From NCBI GenBank assembly GCA_934101865.1, contig CAKOSA010000001.1:22235-86234 (forward strand): DNA of 64,000 nt, written 5' to 3'. Of this stretch, positions 1,549 to 33,209 are shown in pieces. The translations under genes were made by a program, and so were the position numbers. The notes under the pieces were generated by a model, which had not been told where the DNA came from, made no database searches, and saw only the letters and a list, made by a program, of their open reading frames with translations. The stretch comes from an uncultured Bacilli bacterium (GTDB lineage: Bacteria; Bacillota_I; Bacilli_A; RF39; UBA660). Position 1 is the stretch's first letter; each line of letters begins with the position of its first letter.

Positions 1549-2756
1549 TGAAAATAGAAAAATTAAACCATAACGGTTTTGGTATCGGCTATATAGACGG
1601 TAAAGTAACTTTTGTAAAAAATACCCTAATAGGTGATGAAGTAGAAGTATTAATTACCAAAGAACATAAAACATATAATGAAGCAAAAGTAACAAAATAC
1701 TTAACCAAATCCCCATTACATAAAGTACCCATCTGTCCTTATGCAGATAAATGTGGTGGATGTACTTATCAAATGATGTCTTATGAAGAAGAATTATCCC
1801 AAAAACAAAAAGTAGTAGAGGAGCTATTAGGAAAAAAAGCCCAAATCATAAAATGCGATAACTATAATTACCGCAATAAAATAACCCTTAAAGTAAAGAA
1901 TGGTAAAATAGGCTTCTTTGCCGAAGGCACCCATAATCTAGTCAGTATAGATAAATGCTATTTATGTACAGAAAAAATAAATAAAATAATCAACGAGTTA
2001 CTAACTATCGACCTCTCTAACATCTATGAAATAACCATTAGAGAAGGCGAAGAAACCATAGTAATACTATATAATACAGGACCAACAAACGTAGATATAT
2101 CCCATTTAAAAAATGCCGATAATATCCTCTTGAAAGATGAAGATTATCACGTATTAAAAGGCAAATCATCCATAACCACTAACATTGGTAAGTACAAATA
2201 CATAATAGAAAAAGACAGTTTCTTTCAAGTCAACAAATACTTAACTCAAAAGCTCTACGATAAAGCTCTCGAATACCTCCATCCCCGTGATGACGATGTT
2301 CTTCTTGACCTCTATTGTGGAGCCGGAACCATTGGCATATACTTCGCATCCAGTGTAGAAAGAGTAATCGGTATTGAACTAAATGAATATTCCGTTGCCT
2401 CAGCTAATAAAAATAAAAATCTAAACAATATTCCCAATATAAATTTTATAAATGCAGATGTAGCCAAGGCCATAAATAAAGTGAAAATGGCCACCAAAGT
2501 AGTGGTCGACCCCCCACGTAAAGGCCTCGATAAAAACACCATAAACAACATTAAAAGACTGTACCCCGCCCGCATAATTTACATCTCCTGCAACGTGCAT
2601 ACCCTCGCCCGCGATATTAAACTGTTGGAAGATTTTTATACTTTGGAAAGTTACACTATCGTGGATATGTTTAAAGGTACATATCACACTGAGATTGTTT
2701 CTGTATTACAAAGAAAAGAAGAAGCGGAATTAATATGGAAAACAAATACAATCTAA
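1548..2756 (+). CDS. 23S rRNA (uracil-C5)-methyltransferase, RumA/RlmD family, with TRAM domain and a 4-Cys cluster
   Basis: N-terminal TRAM-like domain, Cys cluster (CPYADKCGGCTYQ), and a SAM-dependent methyltransferase fold (DLYCGAGTIG, PPRKG). The start overlaps the obg stop by 1 nt. Confidence 0.85.
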   Translation: MKIEKLNHNGFGIGYIDGKVTFVKNTLIGDEVEVLITKEHKTYNEAKVTKYLTKSPLHKVPICPYADKCGGCTYQMMSYEEELSQKQKVVEELLGKKAQIIKCDNYNYRNKITLKVKNGKIGFFAEGTHNLVSIDKCYLCTEKINKIINELLTIDLSNIYEITIREGEETIVILYNTGPTNVDISHLKNADNILLKDEDYHVLKGKSSITTNIGKYKYIIEKDSFFQVNKYLTQKLYDKALEYLHPRDDDVLLDLYCGAGTIGIYFASSVERVIGIELNEYSVASANKNKNLNNIPNINFINADVAKAINKVKMATKVVVDPPRKGLDKNTINNIKRLYPARIIYISCNVHTLARDIKLLEDFYTLESYTIVDMFKGTYHTEIVSVLQRKEEAELIWKTNTI

Positions 2757-3400
2757 CAAGAGAGCAAAATGTTTTTGTAGCCAAGAGAAACATTGTTGAC
2801 TATATATGGAAAAGTGCAAACCTAGAAGGAATTGCTGTTACCTATCCCGAGACGCAGGCCATTTACGATGGTGGCATAGTAAACGGATTAACAGTAGATA
2901 AAATAATAACCATAAATAATCTAAAATATGCGTGGGAGTTTATTTTAGAAAACAAAGACATAGAATACGATTATAAAGCATTATGTCAAATTCATAAACT
3001 AACCTGTGATAAATTAGTCCTAGACCAAAACTTGGGAAGAATAAGAACTACCCCCGTAAATATAGGTGGAACAACTTGGAAACCCCCATTTCCCATAGAA
3101 AGTCAAATAAAAGAAGAGCTAGAAACATTAATAAATGAAGAAACCAAAACTAAAACCGAAATAGCTCTTGATGTAATGTTGTGGATAATGCGAAGGCAAA
3201 TGTTCAAGGGTGGTAATAAAAGAGTGGCAATGCTCTTTGCTAATAAAATAATGATAGATAATGGCTGTGGCATAATAACCATATCACAAGATAATCAAAG
3301 CACTTTTTTTGAAAAATTAATCAAATACTATGAAACAGGTGACAACCAAGATATAAAAAACTGGCTCTATGAAACCAGTATCGACGGAATGAACCTATAA
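2735..3400 (+). CDS. Fic/Doc-family protein with a degenerate Doc-type motif (QMFKGGNKR) lacking the catalytic His
   Basis: Fic-fold-like sequence with MFKGGNKRVAML where Fic/Doc proteins carry HxFx(D/N)(A/G)NKR. The His position is Gln. Overlaps the end of the methyltransferase gene by 22 nt. Confidence 0.55.
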   Translation: MENKYNLTREQNVFVAKRNIVDYIWKSANLEGIAVTYPETQAIYDGGIVNGLTVDKIITINNLKYAWEFILENKDIEYDYKALCQIHKLTCDKLVLDQNLGRIRTTPVNIGGTTWKPPFPIESQIKEELETLINEETKTKTEIALDVMLWIMRRQMFKGGNKRVAMLFANKIMIDNGCGIITISQDNQSTFFEKLIKYYETGDNQDIKNWLYETSIDGMNL

Positions 3401-3427: not shown

Positions 3428-3913
3428 ATGGAATTTAAATTAGCAAGCAAAAATATGCTTAACGACATATATAACTTATATGTAAAAAGAATAGAGTGGA
3501 TGGAGCAAACCGGCATTAAAGCGTGGAACGTCCGTAATTACCTAGAAACCTATCCAAGGGAGTACTTCTCAAAACAAATTGACAAAGGAAGACTGTACGT
3601 CCTTACCAATAACAATAAGGTAATCGGCTCTCTCGTCCTCCTCGAAACAGACCCAAGATGGGGCGACAATAAAGGCAAGGAGTACTACGTTCATAATCTG
3701 GTTTCCGATATCAATTATAAAGGCCTCGGTCCCCAGCTTCTGGATGCAGTCCAAAACCTCGCCAAGGAAAATGGCAAGACCAAAGTAAGACTAGACTGTG
3801 CAATCGACAACACCAAACTAAATAAATACTATGAAAAATTAGGTTTTATGTATGTCGGCAAATGCAAAGATGGTCTATATCAAGGAATAAAAAGAGAAAA
3901 AAATATAAATTAG
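3428..3913 (+). CDS. GNAT-family N-acetyltransferase
   Basis: 161 aa with an acetyl-CoA-binding-like segment (NLVSDINYKGLGPQLLD) and the typical GNAT size. Confidence 0.65.
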   Translation: MEFKLASKNMLNDIYNLYVKRIEWMEQTGIKAWNVRNYLETYPREYFSKQIDKGRLYVLTNNNKVIGSLVLLETDPRWGDNKGKEYYVHNLVSDINYKGLGPQLLDAVQNLAKENGKTKVRLDCAIDNTKLNKYYEKLGFMYVGKCKDGLYQGIKREKNIN

Positions 3914-3926
3914 TAAAGGAAATAAT

Positions 3927-4412
3927 ATGACCAAAGAAGAACTATTTAACTATCTAAAAGAACAAAAAATATGGTACGAATTAACCAAACACCAACCTGC
4001 TCATACAATGGAAGATTTATTAGGGGAGCATTTGCCTTACCCTACGGGCTGTGCTAAAAATATCTTCGTTCGTGATGACAAGAAGAAAAACTACTACCTA
4101 ATAACCATTAAAGGCAATAAAAAAGTAAATCTAAAAAAATTCAAGGAAGAAAACAATACCCGTCATCTCAGTTTTTCTTCACCCCAAGACCTATTTACTA
4201 TTCTAAAACTCCATTCTGGAGAAGTAACTCCATTAGGAATTCTTAACGATAAAGACAAAAAAGTAATCTTCTACTTAGATAACGATTTCAAAGAAGAAGA
4301 TATCATCGGAGTACATCCCTTTACAAATACCGAAACGTTGTGGCTAAAAGTAAAAGATTTACTGACTATAATAAAAACGCACGGTAATGAAACCAACCTT
4401 ACCAAAATATAG
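3927..4412 (+). CDS. YbaK/ProX-like aminoacyl-tRNA deacylase domain protein
   Basis: 161 aa with the YbaK/ProX-type conserved GxxKNxF block and a TPLG motif. Confidence 0.65.
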   Translation: MTKEELFNYLKEQKIWYELTKHQPAHTMEDLLGEHLPYPTGCAKNIFVRDDKKKNYYLITIKGNKKVNLKKFKEENNTRHLSFSSPQDLFTILKLHSGEVTPLGILNDKDKKVIFYLDNDFKEEDIIGVHPFTNTETLWLKVKDLLTIIKTHGNETNLTKI

Positions 4413-4426
4413 AAAGGAAGTGTAGT

Positions 4427-5191
4427 ATGAAAATACTCCTCAAAATAATATTAACCCTTTCCCTCATAACCCTAACCATAAGCATAATAACCCAAAACGT
4501 CGTCGTCACAACCCTCTCAAACGATATTGTTGCCAAGAAAATAACAGGCCTTGTCCTTGATAAAACCATAAACGATATCGATACCGATAAATTAGGATTA
4601 TTAGAACAAGCTCTTGTAAAAAGCGGTTATATAGAGAAAATAACCCAAAAATATATAGATAATGAAATAAACAATATCATAAATAATACCAATAATAAAA
4701 TCGATACAACTAACGATATAAATAATATGCTCGACGAGTATCTAACCGGTCTCGTCCCTAGCCAATCCTTAGAAGAAATAAAAGAATATGTAAACGAAAA
4801 AGCACTTACCATTAGAGACAATATTCAGTCGGCAAGTGACAATATGTTTAGTGAAAAGTATAAACCAGTTTTGCAAATTTATCGCACTCTAACTAGCAGT
4901 TTTTTAAAAACTGTAACCATAATATTGTCAATTTTAAGTGCATTTATACTAGTGATTTTAGAGAAAAAGAAAGTCGTAAAAACCTTCGCCCACATAAGTC
5001 TCATAATATCCCTCGTATCCCTAATAATGTACATAACCATATCCCTAGCATCTAACTACATAGACCAAAATATAATGGGAGGCCTCCTAAGCGAAATCAA
5101 CCTCAGCTTGCCCCTAACCCTCTTCATCACCCTCCTAATAGTATCAATAATCCTCATAGTCTTAAACAAAACCGCCCTAAAAGAGAATTAA
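4427..5191 (+). CDS. Hypothetical membrane protein
   Basis: N-terminal hydrophobic helix, Asn-rich linker and two or three C-terminal TM helices. No recognisable domain. Confidence 0.45.
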   Translation: MKILLKIILTLSLITLTISIITQNVVVTTLSNDIVAKKITGLVLDKTINDIDTDKLGLLEQALVKSGYIEKITQKYIDNEINNIINNTNNKIDTTNDINNMLDEYLTGLVPSQSLEEIKEYVNEKALTIRDNIQSASDNMFSEKYKPVLQIYRTLTSSFLKTVTIILSILSAFILVILEKKKVVKTFAHISLIISLVSLIMYITISLASNYIDQNIMGGLLSEINLSLPLTLFITLLIVSIILIVLNKTALKEN

Positions 5192-5252
5192 CTCTCTTTT
5201 TTTCTTCCCAAAATCCCCAAATTATGATAGAATATAGGCTAAGAGGTGAAGT

Positions 5253-6269
5253 ATGGAATTAATAGATTTTACAAATAACATTTCCAAAGCCAAATTACAG
5301 GAAATAAATGACTATCTCCAAGCCGGCCAACTCATAATATTTCCCACTGAAACCGTTTATGGGTTAGGTGCTATCGCAACTGATGACAAAGCCGTAAGTA
5401 ATATATATAAAGCCAAAGGTAGGAAAAGCGATAACCCCCTCATAGTCCATTTATCTAGTGCAGATGAAATAGAAAAATATGCCCATATAGAAAATGAAGT
5501 AGAAAGAAAACTAATAAGTACATTTATGCCAGGACCATTTACAATAATATTAAAAAAGAAAGAAAATATTCCTAGCACCGTATCGGGAGGCCTAGATACA
5601 GTAGGAATAAGAGTACCATCCAATAAAATAGCCCACTCAATCCTATCATATAAAAATATCCCCATCGCTGCCCCCTCGGCAAATATATCCGGTAGACCCT
5701 CCGGAACCAATATCGAAGACATATATAACGAATTTAAAGATAAAGTCTCCTGTATCATAAACGGTGGAAACAGTCAGATAGGACTAGAATCCACCGTCGT
5801 AAGAGTAGTCGATAATATCCCCATCATCCTAAGACCAGGCTATATAACCAAGGAAGATATCCTAAATATTATAGGCAGTGTCAAAGTAGATGACAATATC
5901 TTTAAAAAAGATGTTGGTACCCCCCTCTCCCCAGGTATGAAATATAAACACTATGCCCCAAACAGTCCCAGCACCCTTATATATATAAAAGATAAAGAAG
6001 CCAAAATAAACTATTTCAAGGAAAATACTACGGAAAATACCATTATAATAGGAAGTAAAGATTTAGAGAACATCTCTTGTAAAAAATACCTCAATTATGG
6101 TAACACTCCCCTAGAAATATCCCATAATATCTTTACCCTTTTAAGAAAGGCCGATACCTACTTTCCCGATAAAATTCTCATCGAAGGAGTATCCCAAGAC
6201 GGTTTAGGCCTTGCCATAATGAATAGATTAATAAGAGCTTGTAGTCATAACTACATTGAAAGGAAATAA
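5253..6269 (+). CDS. tsaC: L-threonylcarbamoyladenylate synthase (Sua5/YwlC/TsaC, long form)
   Basis: YrdC-domain motifs (PTETVYGLGA, KGRKSDNPLIVH, RVPS...PSANISGRPS) plus a C-terminal Sua5 domain. 338 aa. Confidence 0.9.
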   Translation: MELIDFTNNISKAKLQEINDYLQAGQLIIFPTETVYGLGAIATDDKAVSNIYKAKGRKSDNPLIVHLSSADEIEKYAHIENEVERKLISTFMPGPFTIILKKKENIPSTVSGGLDTVGIRVPSNKIAHSILSYKNIPIAAPSANISGRPSGTNIEDIYNEFKDKVSCIINGGNSQIGLESTVVRVVDNIPIILRPGYITKEDILNIIGSVKVDDNIFKKDVGTPLSPGMKYKHYAPNSPSTLIYIKDKEAKINYFKENTTENTIIIGSKDLENISCKKYLNYGNTPLEISHNIFTLLRKADTYFPDKILIEGVSQDGLGLAIMNRLIRACSHNYIERK

Positions 6270-30117: not shown

Positions 30118-30236
30118 TACTTATCTATATATAATATAGATACCCCCAAAATGTTACATAACACTTGGTAGTAAATGATTATTTTATGTAACCACCCCTA
30201 ATCTAATTCCAAAGAACGTGAAGCGTATAGTTTTAA

Positions 30237-30280
30237 AAAAAGTTTTGCAAGAAAAAGTAACCTTGCAAAACTTTTTTAAA
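30237..30280. terminator. Bidirectional terminator between rnhB (+) and lexA (-)
   Basis: 13-bp perfect inverted repeat AAAGTTTTGCAAG ... CTTGCAAAACTTT, flanked by A-runs on one side and T-runs on the other. Confidence 0.65.
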
Positions 30281-30902
30281 ACTTTCTATATAATCCCACA
30301 ACCTTACCAACAATAACCGCCTTTTTAACAATAATCGGGTCATATTCAGGGTTATCAGTTTGAAGCCTATCAAAACCTCTCTCATTAAATAATCTTTTAA
30401 TTGTCGGCAAATTGTTCTTATCTAGGGCAACTACCATATCGCCGTCCTTAGCCTTTTCACATTTTTTAACAATAACAATATCACCACTCAGAATGCCACT
30501 ACCAACCATATCATCATTAATTTTCTGCATAGCATATACATCAACATCTTCATCCGCTAAATACGTTGGAATAGAGAAAATCTCATTTGGTGTATCAAGT
30601 TCAAGTAAGTAATTGCCATTACCCTCCTTAATTAAAGGAACATTAACAACCTCATCACTCTTTGTATCATATTCATTAGGAACCAAAAGTTCAATCGCCT
30701 TATTACCATAAGGATTTCTCTTAACATATCCCTTTTCAACAAGCCCCTTCAAATGAACGTGTATTGTCGCCGGAGAGTTTATACCAATAATTTCCCCAAT
30801 CTGTCTTACAGAAGGTGGATATTTGTTCTCCGCATAAAACTTCTTGATAACGGTAAGTACCTCTTTCTGTTTTTTTGTAAGTCCTATCGATTTTGTTCGC
30901 AT
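30276..30902 (-). CDS. lexA: LexA repressor (S24 peptidase family)
   Basis: N-terminal wHTH (LTKKQKEVLTVIKKFYAENKYPPSVRQIGEIIG), a C-terminal S24 domain with SGDIVIV...DGDMVVAL, and a Lys dyad partner. Start set to the second ATG (MRTKS), which has a GGGAGG RBS. Confidence 0.9.
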   Translation of the reverse strand: MRTKSIGLTKKQKEVLTVIKKFYAENKYPPSVRQIGEIIGINSPATIHVHLKGLVEKGYVKRNPYGNKAIELLVPNEYDTKSDEVVNVPLIKEGNGNYLLELDTPNEIFSIPTYLADEDVDVYAMQKINDDMVGSGILSGDIVIVKKCEKAKDGDMVVALDKNNLPTIKRLFNERGFDRLQTDNPEYDPIIVKKAVIVGKVVGLYRKF

Positions 30903-30930
30903 TAAAAATACCTCCCTAATTTTTTTCATT

Positions 30931-30966
30931 TGCTAATATAATAGCACATTTCTTTTGGTTTGTCAA
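30931..30966 (-). promoter_or_regulatory. lexA promoter (TTGACA - 17 - TATTAT, minus strand) with a TGCTA-N6-TAGCA dyad overlapping the -10
   Basis: On the minus strand the -35 is TTGACA (30961-30966) and the -10 is TATTAT (30938-30943). The near-palindrome TGCTAATATAATAGCA spans 30931-30946. No canonical CGAAC-N4-GTTCG Cheo box was seen nearby. Confidence 0.45.
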
Positions 30967-31078
30967 ACAAATGTTAAAGATTTATTAAAAGTTTTTTTCT
31001 TTCTTACTCATATTATCTAAGTATTGCCATACTTTTCCAAAAGTGCCCATAAATTAAGGGTTTTAAAGTCCCAAAAAT

Positions 31079-31199
31079 ATGCTGGAAATATGCTGGAATT
31101 ATGCAGATTTTCAAAAATTGTTGATCTCGCATTGCAGATTTTCAAAAACTGCAAGTCCAAACCAGCAGAAATTCAAAAATTGCACCATCACCCAAAGCA
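31079..31199. repeat. Tandem repeat block: two 11-bp ATGCTGGAAxT units, then three units at an exact 31-bp period starting GAxxTTCAAAAA(T/C)TG and ending GCA
   Basis: ATGCTGGAAAT / ATGCTGGAATT at 31079-31100. TTCAAAAA at 31110, 31141 and 31172. Units GATTTTCAAAAATTGTTGATCTCGCATTGCA, GATTTTCAAAAACTGCAAGTCCAAACCAGCA and GAAATTCAAAAATTGCACC... Confidence 0.7.
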
Positions 31200-31257
31200 A
31201 GGCCAAATAAACGAGCCCGCATCCTATCACAAAAAAAATCAAAAAATTTAGTTACCT

Positions 31258-31458
31258 CTCAAAGTAATGGACACTAATAAAATCAGTAAATATTATTCTC
31301 AAAGTAATGGAAATAGATATTCTCAAAGCAACGGAAACTATTTTTTCAAAGTGTCCATTACACTGATAATTAAGATGTTCCAAATGTTTTTTTATTTAGG
31401 CGTATTCTCAAAGTAATGGAAACTATTTTTTAAAGTGTTCATTACCCTGAGAATTAAG
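31258..31458. repeat. Four copies of ATTCTCAAAG(T/C)AA(T/C)GGAAA: two half-units and two full 55-bp imperfectly palindromic units
   Basis: Half-units at 31258-31274 and 31295-31316. Full units at 31319-31374 and 31404-31458 are about 88 % identical. The second unit has perfect outer arms ATTCTCAG/CTGAGAAT. Confidence 0.7.
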
Positions 31459-31484
31459 AAAATCAAAAAATTATCAAAAAATGG

Positions 31485-31513
31485 TTGACATATAAAAAGT
31501 AATAAGTTATAAT
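31485..31513 (+). promoter_or_regulatory. Consensus sigma-A promoter (TTGACA - 17 - TATAAT) for the 31580 ORF
   Basis: TTGACA at 31485-31490 and TATAAT at 31508-31513, immediately downstream of the palindromic repeat units. The leader contains the palindrome GTTATAAC twice. Confidence 0.55.
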
Positions 31514-31579
31514 GTTAGCAGTCACTGAAAAAGCAGTTATAATTAACGTATTGTTATAACAAAAAAAGGAGGAAAACGT

Positions 31580-32236
31580 ATGAATTATAATGAAATACTA
31601 ATAAAGTATATTGACAATTATCCCACAGATGAACCAATCTTTATCGAGGATATAAAAAGACACTTCGAAAGTGTTATGGAAGAAGAACTATTAAACAATA
31701 TTATTAAGGACATCTATGTCTATATAAATAGACTAGTAAAAGCAAACAAAGTAGAACAGTGTACCAAAGGTGTATACTATAAGGAAACAAAAAATAAAGA
31801 AAAAAGTAGAGAAATAGTTTCCCAAAAGACTATAAACAGAAAATACATTAAAGATGCTAACGGTCAGAAAGGGTACTACACAGGAATACATCTATTTAAC
31901 GAATTAGGCTTAACTAGTCAAACATCCCCAAAAATAATAATAGTAACAAATGAATGCCCCAACAATAACCACTATAAAAATAAAGGCTTAGGAGTAACTA
32001 TTAAAAGACCAAAAATAATTATCGATAACGATAATTGCAGATACCTAAAACTATTTGATGTATTAATAAATCGAGATAATGTCGAAATAGAAGTCTCAAA
32101 GAAACGCGAAAAAGAAATAATCTATAAATACATAAAAGATAACAAAATCGAGATGGAAAGACTATTTGAGTATGCCAACAAATTATACAATTTAAAGCCC
32201 ATTGAAAAATTATATGATATAAGTGGAGAAGAGTAA
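31580..32236 (+). CDS. Hypothetical protein; the N-terminus resembles an AbiEi-like wHTH (type IV TA antitoxin-type regulator), but no AbiEii partner is adjacent
   Basis: N-terminal pattern PIFIEDIKRHF...IYVYINRLVKANKVEQCTKGVYYK is reminiscent of AbiEi_4-type wHTH domains. GGAGG RBS. Downstream gene is convergent. Low-confidence family call. Confidence 0.35.
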   Translation: MNYNEILIKYIDNYPTDEPIFIEDIKRHFESVMEEELLNNIIKDIYVYINRLVKANKVEQCTKGVYYKETKNKEKSREIVSQKTINRKYIKDANGQKGYYTGIHLFNELGLTSQTSPKIIIVTNECPNNNHYKNKGLGVTIKRPKIIIDNDNCRYLKLFDVLINRDNVEIEVSKKREKEIIYKYIKDNKIEMERLFEYANKLYNLKPIEKLYDISGEE

Positions 32237-32246
32237 AACAATACCA

Positions 32247-33209
32247 TTACTTACCAAATAATTTACCTTGATAAGTATCTCTAATTACCATTTCCTTATC
32301 AATATCATTCATTACACTAACCTTTTTAACAATCCACTTTGGAGAAATAAGATTATCAATATCAGCATCAGATATAATGCGATGAATAACTATTCTAGGA
32401 TCAAGAATTTCCAGTTGTCTAATAACAATATCAATATACTCATCCTTAGATAAAATTTTAATATCACCATTATTATATAACTTTTCCAAAGGCGTATCCT
32501 TAAGGACCATCAAAGTATGAAATTTAACACCTTGAATATCAAGAGTATTAAGAAATTTAGCACTCTCTAACATCATATCCAAAGTCTCATTAGGAAGACC
32601 ATTAATAAGGTGAATAACCACATTAATACCCATTTTCCTAAGTCTCTTTACACAAGATGTAAATTCAAACAAAGTATGACCCCGATTAATAAATTTCCCC
32701 GTTTCTTCCCAAATACTTTGTAAACCCAATTCAACTACAATATAATATTTCTTACTAAGAACCTCTAAGTAATCAAGCACCTCATCACTTATACAATCAC
32801 ACCTCGTAGCAATCGCAAGCCCCATAACATCAGGTAAAGAAAGAATAGCCTCATATTTTTCCTTTAATACCGAAAGAGGAGCATAAGTATTACTTCGAGC
32901 CTGAAAATAACCAATATATTTCCCATTAGGCCATTTTCTGTCCATAACCTCTTTAACCTCATAAAACTGTTTTACTAAAGAGTGGGTAACATTACCAGCA
33001 AACTCTCCACTACCACTCTTTGAACAATAAATACAACCCCCATATCCCTTTGTACCATCCATATTAGGACAGCTAAATCCCCCATTAAGACTAATTTTCT
33101 TAATTTTAAAACCAAAATTAGTTTTATAAAAATAGTTAAGAGTATGGTATCTCTTATTATCTAAACTATATTTAAACATAAAAATCACCAAAAATATTCT
33201 ATCATACAA
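32247..33209 (-). CDS. Radical SAM protein, TIGR01212 (YhcC/YtqA-like) family
   Basis: CPNMDGTKGYGGCIYCS cluster near the N-terminus, characteristic of the TIGR01212 radical-SAM family. 320 aa. Confidence 0.75.
   Translation of the reverse strand: MYDRIFLVIFMFKYSLDNKRYHTLNYFYKTNFGFKIKKISLNGGFSCPNMDGTKGYGGCIYCSKSGSGEFAGNVTHSLVKQFYEVKEVMDRKWPNGKYIGYFQARSNTYAPLSVLKEKYEAILSLPDVMGLAIATRCDCISDEVLDYLEVLSKKYYIVVELGLQSIWEETGKFINRGHTLFEFTSCVKRLRKMGINVVIHLINGLPNETLDMMLESAKFLNTLDIQGVKFHTLMVLKDTPLEKLYNNGDIKILSKDEYIDIVIRQLEILDPRIVIHRIISDADIDNLISPKWIVKKVSVMNDIDKEMVIRDTYQGKLFGK

Follow-up and report, generated by a model that had tools for sequence, protein, structure and literature searches.

A 211-bp repeat block between lexA and an orphan AbiEi-like gene is very probably a transposase-less derivative of an IS30-family element

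The repeat block that separates lexA from an orphan AbiEi-like gene in the 64-kb stretch of DNA analysed here (the window) is, with high confidence, a 211-bp non-autonomous derivative, i.e., a MITE, of an IS30-family insertion sequence (IS) from uncultured gut and rumen Bacilli. It is short and contains no transposase gene, both of its ends are homologous to those of an autonomous element, and it is flanked by a target-site duplication, for which the corresponding empty site exists in a close relative. The initial annotation had described the block as a candidate operator of the AbiEi-like protein and, alternatively, as a MITE-like insertion between lexA and the downstream gene. The latter proposal agrees with the match of the ends to a full IS on contig L118, with the target-site duplication and with the empty-site allele L134, whereas the operator proposal is not supported. 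The coordinates of all features are given in Table 1.

The insertion became apparent from the comparison with L134, a near-identical relative in which a 100% identical AbiEi-like protein is encoded behind the same promoter, without the block. Positions 30226-31248 of the window align to L134 2-1001 (88.8% identity) and positions 31456-32429 to L134 985-1962 (97.8% identity). These two alignments overlap by 17 nt in L134, which therefore has the target only once and lacks the block. This single copy is AAAACAAAAAATT, read as AAA(A/T)CAAAAAATT, in the wider context ...CAAAAAAAACAAAAAATTATCAAAAAACGGTTGACA..., whereas AAATCAAAAAATT is found on both sides of the block in the window. Since one target copy in L134 corresponds to two copies flanking the block, the sequence between them is an insertion with a target-site duplication of 13-14 bp (14 bp if the ambiguous A is counted). 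L001 and L002, in which lexA and an ortholog with 78% identity are arranged in the same way, also lack the block, as do four more distant loci. The blastn homology of L001 and L002 to the window extends up to 30996 and resumes at 31467, and their promoter is conserved base for base. As a separate observation, the lexA side is 88.8% and the AbiEi-like side 97.8% identical to L134, with the change at the insertion site; this points to separate histories of the two flanks or to a recombination breakpoint.

Table 1. The inserted element and its neighbourhood (positions in the window)
Feature	Position	Strand	Evidence
Target-site duplication, left copy AAATCAAAAAATT	31236..31248	.	Same 13-mer at 31460-31472; single copy in L134
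Whole non-autonomous element, 211 bp, TAGTTACC...GAGAATTAAGA	31249..31459	+	Absent from L134, L001 and L002; ends match the L118 IS
Left end (downstream of the transposase gene in full copies)	31249..31314	+	Alignment with the L118 IS
Right end (upstream of the transposase gene in full copies); first palindromic unit of the initial annotation	31291..31375	+	Alignment with the L118 IS
23-nt spacer between the first right end and the second unit	31376..31398	.	No informative match
Second, minimal unit; second palindromic unit of the initial annotation	31399..31459	+	Alignment with the L118 IS; ~90% identical to the solo element in L121
Target-site duplication, right copy AAATCAAAAAATT	31460..31472	.	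Repeat of the left copy
Sigma-70-type promoter TTGACA-17-TATAAT of the AbiEi-like gene, outside the element	31485..31513	+	Scores 12/12; identical in L134, L001 and L002
Orphan AbiEi-like (DUF6088) gene, neighbour of the insertion	31580..32236	+	Weak Pfam DUF6088 match

The block consists of repeated sites of about 20 bp. Four matches to TCTCAAAGTAATGGAAAC (≤3 mismatches) were detected in the window, at 31257, 31297, 31321 and 31406, all of them on the + strand, in direct orientation and between 31257 and 31423. By chance, 0.14 matches are expected; four were reached in 0 of 100 shuffles, and no second copy of the element was found elsewhere in the 64 kb. These are the four direct copies counted before, the first of which (CCTCTCAAAGTAATGGACAC) deviates from the consensus proposed at the time. 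Repeat finding and a mismatch scan identified two reverse-oriented copies in addition (31351-31370 and 31435-31454); together with the four forward copies, there are thus six ~20-bp sites in the GTAATGGA block. Two of the six pair with their forward neighbours, forming imperfect palindromic units at 31319-31370 (unit 3) and 31404-31454 (unit 4), as had been noticed initially. The arms of unit 3 are 71-81% complementary, and this unit folds weakly as single-stranded DNA, no better than chance. Unit 4 has 21-nt arms with 81% complementarity, a 9-nt loop and perfect pairing of its outer 7 bp (ATTCTCA/TGAGAAT), with a folding energy as single-stranded DNA of -8.5 to -8.6 kcal/mol (z -3.2 to -3.9 compared with shuffled sequences). 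The downstream promoter, previously called a perfect TTGACA-17-TATAAT, indeed matches at all 12 positions. The gap of 27 bp given for it needs correction, as 30 bp separate the end of unit 4 (31454) from the -35 hexamer, which starts at 31485, 25 bp beyond the end of the element (31459).

Searching for sequences related to the block, we found its ends in the IS of the metagenome contig L118. In blastn comparisons, positions 2-61 of this IS matched window 31251-31311 (86.9% identity, E 5.9e-13), an alignment that includes non-site spacer (TAATAAAATCAGTAAATAT in the window, TGATAAAGCCAGTAAATAT in the IS). Positions 1980-2065 matched window 31291-31376 (81.4% identity, E 4.5e-14), and positions 2008-2064 matched window 31404-31459 (86% identity, E 1e-10). 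The left end of the element opens with the hexamer-like terminal sequence AGTTAC, followed by site 1 (31255-31274) and, after a spacer of 20 nt, by site 2 (31295-31314). The right end runs from site 2 across 4 nt to site 3 (31319-31338) and, beyond another spacer, to the reverse terminal site (31351-31370), with TTAAGA (31370-31375) as its terminus. For the 23-nt spacer that follows, only low-complexity noise and no informative match was obtained in any fetched locus. The second unit then continues with GGCGTA, a forward site (31404-31423), an 11-nt spacer, a reverse site (31435-31454) and again TTAAGA (31454-31459), and no inner duplication was seen between it and the first right end. A tblastn search with the L118 transposase over the whole window returned noise only (E > 1), and the ORFs overlapping the element encode at most 49 aa. 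The lost transposase gene would have read leftward in the orientation of the window.

The L118 element has a length of 2.07 kb (3460-5524), with motif sites clustered at both ends around a gene. It starts with GGTGAC followed by TTCTCAAAGTAATGGAAAC (3460), ends with ...GTCCATTACTTTGAGAAT followed by TAAGA (5524) and is bracketed by the 15-bp direct repeat TTATCATAATTTTTA. Its terminal inverted repeats are GGTGACTTCTCAAAGTAATGGAAAC and TCTTAATTCTCAAAGTAATGGACAT, and equivalents exist in L129 and L136. The 437-aa ORF between them matches the NCBIfam model NF033563 (IS30 family transposase) with 104.9 bits (cutoff 80, E 5.7e-30). A Pfam scan of this transposase and of the small ORF described below gave no match, and HTH_38 matches in homologs of the transposase were faint; the assignment to the IS30 family is based on the NCBIfam match and on these faint HTH_38 matches. 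A further ORF, of 97 aa in L118, overlaps the transposase start. Encoding 89-97 aa and overlapping by 8 nt, this small accessory ORF is conserved in all full-length IS copies (L118, L129, L132, L135 and L136-L143), which is unusual for a family that normally has one ORF, and it belongs to no Pfam or NCBIfam family. Its coordinates are 4905-5198 (- strand) in L118, 2739-3008 in L129, 2736-3008 in L132, 1323-1595 in L135 and 814-1092 in L136. Beside the IS, L118 827-3421 encodes an 864-aa protein composed almost wholly of DxDGDG(K/V)PD/CD repeats, which by eye appears to be calcium-binding and thrombospondin-type-3-like.

Full copies of the parent element measure ~2.07-2.23 kb. Their ~26-bp terminal inverted repeats are composed of a tip of 5-6 nt (GGTGA./T.TTAA or TGTGA.) and the 20-bp site ATTCTCAAAGTAATGGAAAC, and each end holds three or four further 20-bp sites internally. 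The palindromic unit is formed at the end upstream of the transposase gene, where ~13 nt separate the terminal site from an internal site in inverted orientation; the same palindrome and the same 24-bp site-to-site spacing are present in L118, L068 and L129. The transposase in L129 is 70% identical and its sites have co-diverged (ATTCTAAAAGTAAATACAAC) within the same layout: terminal site, 13 nt, inverted site, 4 nt, site, ~38 nt and site, with three more sites beyond the transposase gene and a 14-bp duplication (TTTTCATTTTTTCT). The same layout was found in the 2230-bp element (TGTGAG...CTTCACC) of transposase P0167, which occurs in identical form on at least 19 contigs with different flanks. 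Therefore, the palindromic unit is the normal transposase-proximal end of these IS and not a peculiarity of the AbiEi promoter. Duplications of 13-15 bp were identified in the window, L118, L121, L129 and L138. One insertion of the P0167 element carried a 14-bp duplication and two further ones had none; the full copies L136 and L143, as well as L131, lacked a duplication. In uncultured gut Bacilli, these IS30-type parents are abundant: 908 transposase homologs were obtained at E ≤ 1e-10, most of them on ~2-kb contigs, and the elements fragment MAG assemblies.

To characterise the distribution of the motif, we scanned 185,579 species-representative genomes with ATTCTCAAAGYAAYGGAAA, which yielded mostly single chance matches together with a coherent set in uncultured Bacilli and Mycoplasmatota MAGs. 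In the Bacilli MAG Lapin-026__bin117, four contigs whose flanks are unique and differ from one another break off 74-77 nt beyond TGTGA followed by ATTCTCAAAGTAACGGAAA..., and one contig of Lapin-028__bin71 likewise ends 74-77 nt into the element. This position of the motif relative to contig ends is the usual sign of a multi-copy repeat breaking short-read assembly. Related metagenome copies (L121, L128 and L118) were recovered by a gapped-pattern scan. Among the transposase-less ones, L121 contains a solo 62-bp unit between other genes with AACCCAAAATTAT on both sides (13-14-bp duplication), L128 a unit of the same kind and L064 a further copy of the motif block. Another copy, in L068, is located upstream of rarA. 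A scan of viral contigs with the 17-mer TCTCAAAGYAAYGGAMA resulted in 39 single, unextended chance matches and no phage link.

Two of these loci show additional features. In L064, the region 2573-3086 comprises two forward sites and one reverse site, a promoter TTGACA-16-TATAAT and a truncated 35-aa ORF (Abi-like N-terminus). Block, promoter and ORF together are flanked by a 41-bp direct repeat containing a terminator hairpin (AAATGGTAgaaaaaTACCATTT), the right-hand copy of which does not abut the element end. In L081 (Lapin-026__bin117), a solitary site with a TGTGA tip (gtgtgaATTCTCAAAGTAACGGAAAttataagatac) is located at 195-235, upstream of the start of a gene read as encoding ribosomal protein L13 (rplM-like). 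The rest of the element is absent there, and the site is probably a truncated element end.

From these comparisons, the following origin of the MITE can be proposed. The 20-bp sites would serve as putative transposase-binding sites. The window copy has lost the transposase gene and the small accessory ORF, presumably when the DNA between two directly repeated sites was deleted. Both IS ends align with site 2 (31295-31314), and the simplest history is therefore a site-to-site deletion that removed both ORFs. A second copy of the right end lies 23 nt after the first. A single duplication flanks the entire composite, which was therefore inserted in one piece. The target was AAATCAAAAAATT, of which 13-14 bp were duplicated, 25 bp upstream of the -35 hexamer of a pre-existing promoter. 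The 211-bp element was presumably mobilised in trans, and its effect on the neighbouring promoters may be neutral or merely incidental.

The lexA side of the intergenic region contains repeats of a different kind. At 31075-31182, two tandem 11-mers (AAATATGCTGG) are followed by three copies of TGCAGATTTTCAAAAAYTG at 31-bp spacing, and TGCAGATTTTCAAAAAYTG has 6 matches, including partial ones, vs 0.08 expected. The empty-site allele L134 has these 31-bp repeats too, and part of them is found in L001 and L002. They are older than the insertion and conserved, and may form an array of regulator-binding sites for lexA or the AbiEi-like gene. On the - strand, the longest lexA ORF starts at 30929. 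With orthologs of 208 aa and a GGGAGG ribosome binding site (RBS) in front of it, the ATG at 30902 is more likely to be the start codon. A sequence similar to a Firmicute SOS (Cheo) box, AACATTTGTT, overlaps the lexA promoter, a TG-extended TTGACA-17-TATTAT at 30966-30938.

We considered several other explanations for the block. If the palindromic units were operators, they would be bound by the AbiEi-like protein encoded at 31580, which would in this way autoregulate its own promoter. The gene call underlying this idea was sound: besides its weak DUF6088 match, the 31580 protein has homologs (55-63% identity) with PF19570, whose genes precede one for an AbiEii toxin, and in the window a convergent radical-SAM gene follows the ORF in place of AbiEii, so that "orphan AbiEi-like" is a fair description. 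[quoted passage not shown] The block moreover adjoins the promoter. However, it is located wholly upstream of the -35 hexamer, whereas the operators characterised for AbiEi and Rv2827c are situated inside the promoter or overlap it (PMC7319586). Furthermore, the identical protein and promoter exist in L134 without the block, as do the 78% identical orthologs in L001 and L002, and the same sites form the ends of IS30-family elements in unrelated contexts (upstream of rarA in L068, adjacent to rplM in L081, and in L121). The alignment of seven AbiEi-homolog promoters from different contexts revealed the common arrangement TTGACA-17-TATAATGTTA...(~40 nt)...ATAAC-RBS, i.e., a different conserved motif downstream of the -10 hexamer, and no such repeats. 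An operator function of the palindromic units is thus very improbable in our judgement. Turning to that other motif, in the promoters in L003, L004, L006 and L008 the -10 hexamer is immediately followed by TATAATGTTA(T/G), with an inverted (A)ATAAC(A) ~40 nt further downstream, beside the RBS, and three GTTATAA repeats (31506, 31536 and 31553) are found at 31505-31565 of the window. Should the 31580 protein autoregulate, the conserved GTTA/TAAC inverted motif would be a better operator candidate than the GTAATGGA block.

A MITE may also have been co-opted after its insertion. It might alter the expression of the AbiEi-like gene or of the divergent lexA, be it by having moved the 31-bp repeats 211 bp further from the promoter, by an outward promoter or by bent DNA. 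IS and MITE insertions commonly change the expression of neighbouring genes. Here, the insertion occurred 25 bp from the -35 hexamer, a promoter-like site matching at 10 of 12 positions (TGGACA-17-TATTAT, 31268-31296, + strand) is contained in the element, and the related blocks in L064 and L068 are also positioned just upstream of promoters. Yet, the native promoter is intact and does not differ from the one in the empty allele, an intergenic position is the default for tolerated insertions, and the polymorphism of the element between near-identical relatives fits a recent neutral insertion, which makes co-option rather unlikely. The chances are smaller by far that the repeats are the res or att site of a serine or tyrosine recombinase, or plasmid iterons from an integrated replicon. 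With its mixture of inverted and direct ~20-bp half-sites the block does recall the organisation of res sites, such as Sin resH, or of att arm and core sites, and a related block plus gene fragment is flanked by the 41-bp direct repeat in L064. Against this, an IS30-family DDE transposase is the sole enzyme found to be encoded between two of these ends, genes for a recombinase or Rep protein were not seen beside any copy, and the 13-15-bp flanking duplications differ in sequence, pointing to transposition and not to a fixed att core. We regard it as just as implausible that the palindromic units represent a structured hairpin RNA (sRNA or attenuator) or REP/REPIN-like hairpins moved by a Y1 HUH transposase. 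The better-than-shuffled folding of unit 4 speaks for hairpins, as do the mismatches, which read from the sequence become G-T wobble pairs on the minus strand, and the TTAC preceding the left terminus, as at IS608 targets. Unit 3, by contrast, folds no better than chance, and the block is missing from close relatives. Searches against Rfam detected only two tRNAs elsewhere in the window at gathering thresholds and nothing at E ≤ 1 over 30900-31600. In addition, the associated transposase is an IS30-type DDE enzyme, and the target site is duplicated, which does not happen with IS200/IS605 and REP elements.

For annotation, the assignment to a MITE means that the GTAATGGA block should be labelled as the remnant of a mobile element rather than as regulatory DNA, which avoids a mistaken AbiEi operator. 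The filled allele in the window and the empty allele in L134 constitute a natural pair for the effect of a MITE on nearby promoters. The long duplications and multi-site ends are unlike textbook IS30 and reminiscent of IS1630, and would therefore provide a useful case for how DDE transposases set target-cleavage spacing. The parent IS clade may deserve its own description. More speculatively, and with doubts on our side, the parents could form a distinct, uncatalogued IS30 subgroup that is widespread in uncultured gut Bacilli and Mycoplasmatota. Such a subgroup would be defined by 13-15-bp staggered cleavage, three or four putative transposase-binding sites per end including a terminal palindromic unit, the small accessory ORF and a ready decay to 60-210-bp MITEs by site-to-site deletion, and its MITE in the window could rewire the expression of lexA or of the orphan antitoxin-like regulator.

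With MITEs and other non-autonomous IS derivatives the element shares its short length (211 bp), the lack of a transposase, terminal inverted repeats matching those of an autonomous IS, the duplication, the empty allele in a close relative, the intergenic location and a moderate hairpin potential. It differs from them in that its ends are not simple inverted repeats, with several 20-bp sites per end and two tandem right ends, and in its long duplication of 13-14 bp. The AbiEi and Rv2827c operators are similar to the block in their paired inverted repeats of ~20-23 bp with short gaps near the promoter of an AbiEi-type gene; however, the known operators travel with the gene, whereas the block is missing from an allele with the identical gene and forms transposon ends elsewhere. 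Two further types of mobile elements were considered and rejected. Tn7- or Mu-like transposon ends were suggested by the TGTGA tips and the multiple sites, but the enzyme is of the IS30 type and not of the TnsB/MuA type, the elements are ~2 kb long, and the duplications have 13-15 bp instead of 5 bp. REP/REPIN or IS200/IS605 elements came to mind because of the TTAC at the left tip and the hairpins; here, the transposase is a DDE and not a Y1 HUH enzyme, and the target is duplicated.

Members of the IS30 family, with IS30 of E. coli as the type element, encode a DDE transposase and move by a copy-out-paste-in mechanism. The 437-aa protein of the parent passes the NCBIfam model of this family, its inverted repeats of ~26 bp are within the family range of 20-30 bp, and the element is multi-copy in its behaviour and inserts into intergenic DNA that is rich in AT. 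The target duplication made by IS30 has 2 bp (PMC9333248); those in the parent clade comprise 13-15 bp and thereby exceed the 2-3 bp expected in the family. The parent elements are furthermore longer (2.07-2.23 kb), they possess the extra conserved ORF of 89-97 aa instead of a single ORF only, and each of their ends has 3-4 subterminal copies of the site. IS1630, going by the title of a 1999 study by Calcutt et al., reportedly targets inverted repeats, and the duplicated 41 bp with a terminator hairpin in L064 recall the reported duplication of such targets. In this IS30-type element of Mycoplasma fermentans, the inverted repeats measure 27 bp and the duplications 16-26 bp (PMC3317919). It resembles the parent clade in its IS30-family transposase, its occurrence in the low-GC Mollicutes/Bacilli lineage and its unusually long duplications, and differs by its shorter length (1.18-1.38 kb), its single ORF and its longer and more variable duplications. 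By its published description, IS1630 appears to be the closest described precedent for long duplications in the IS30 family.
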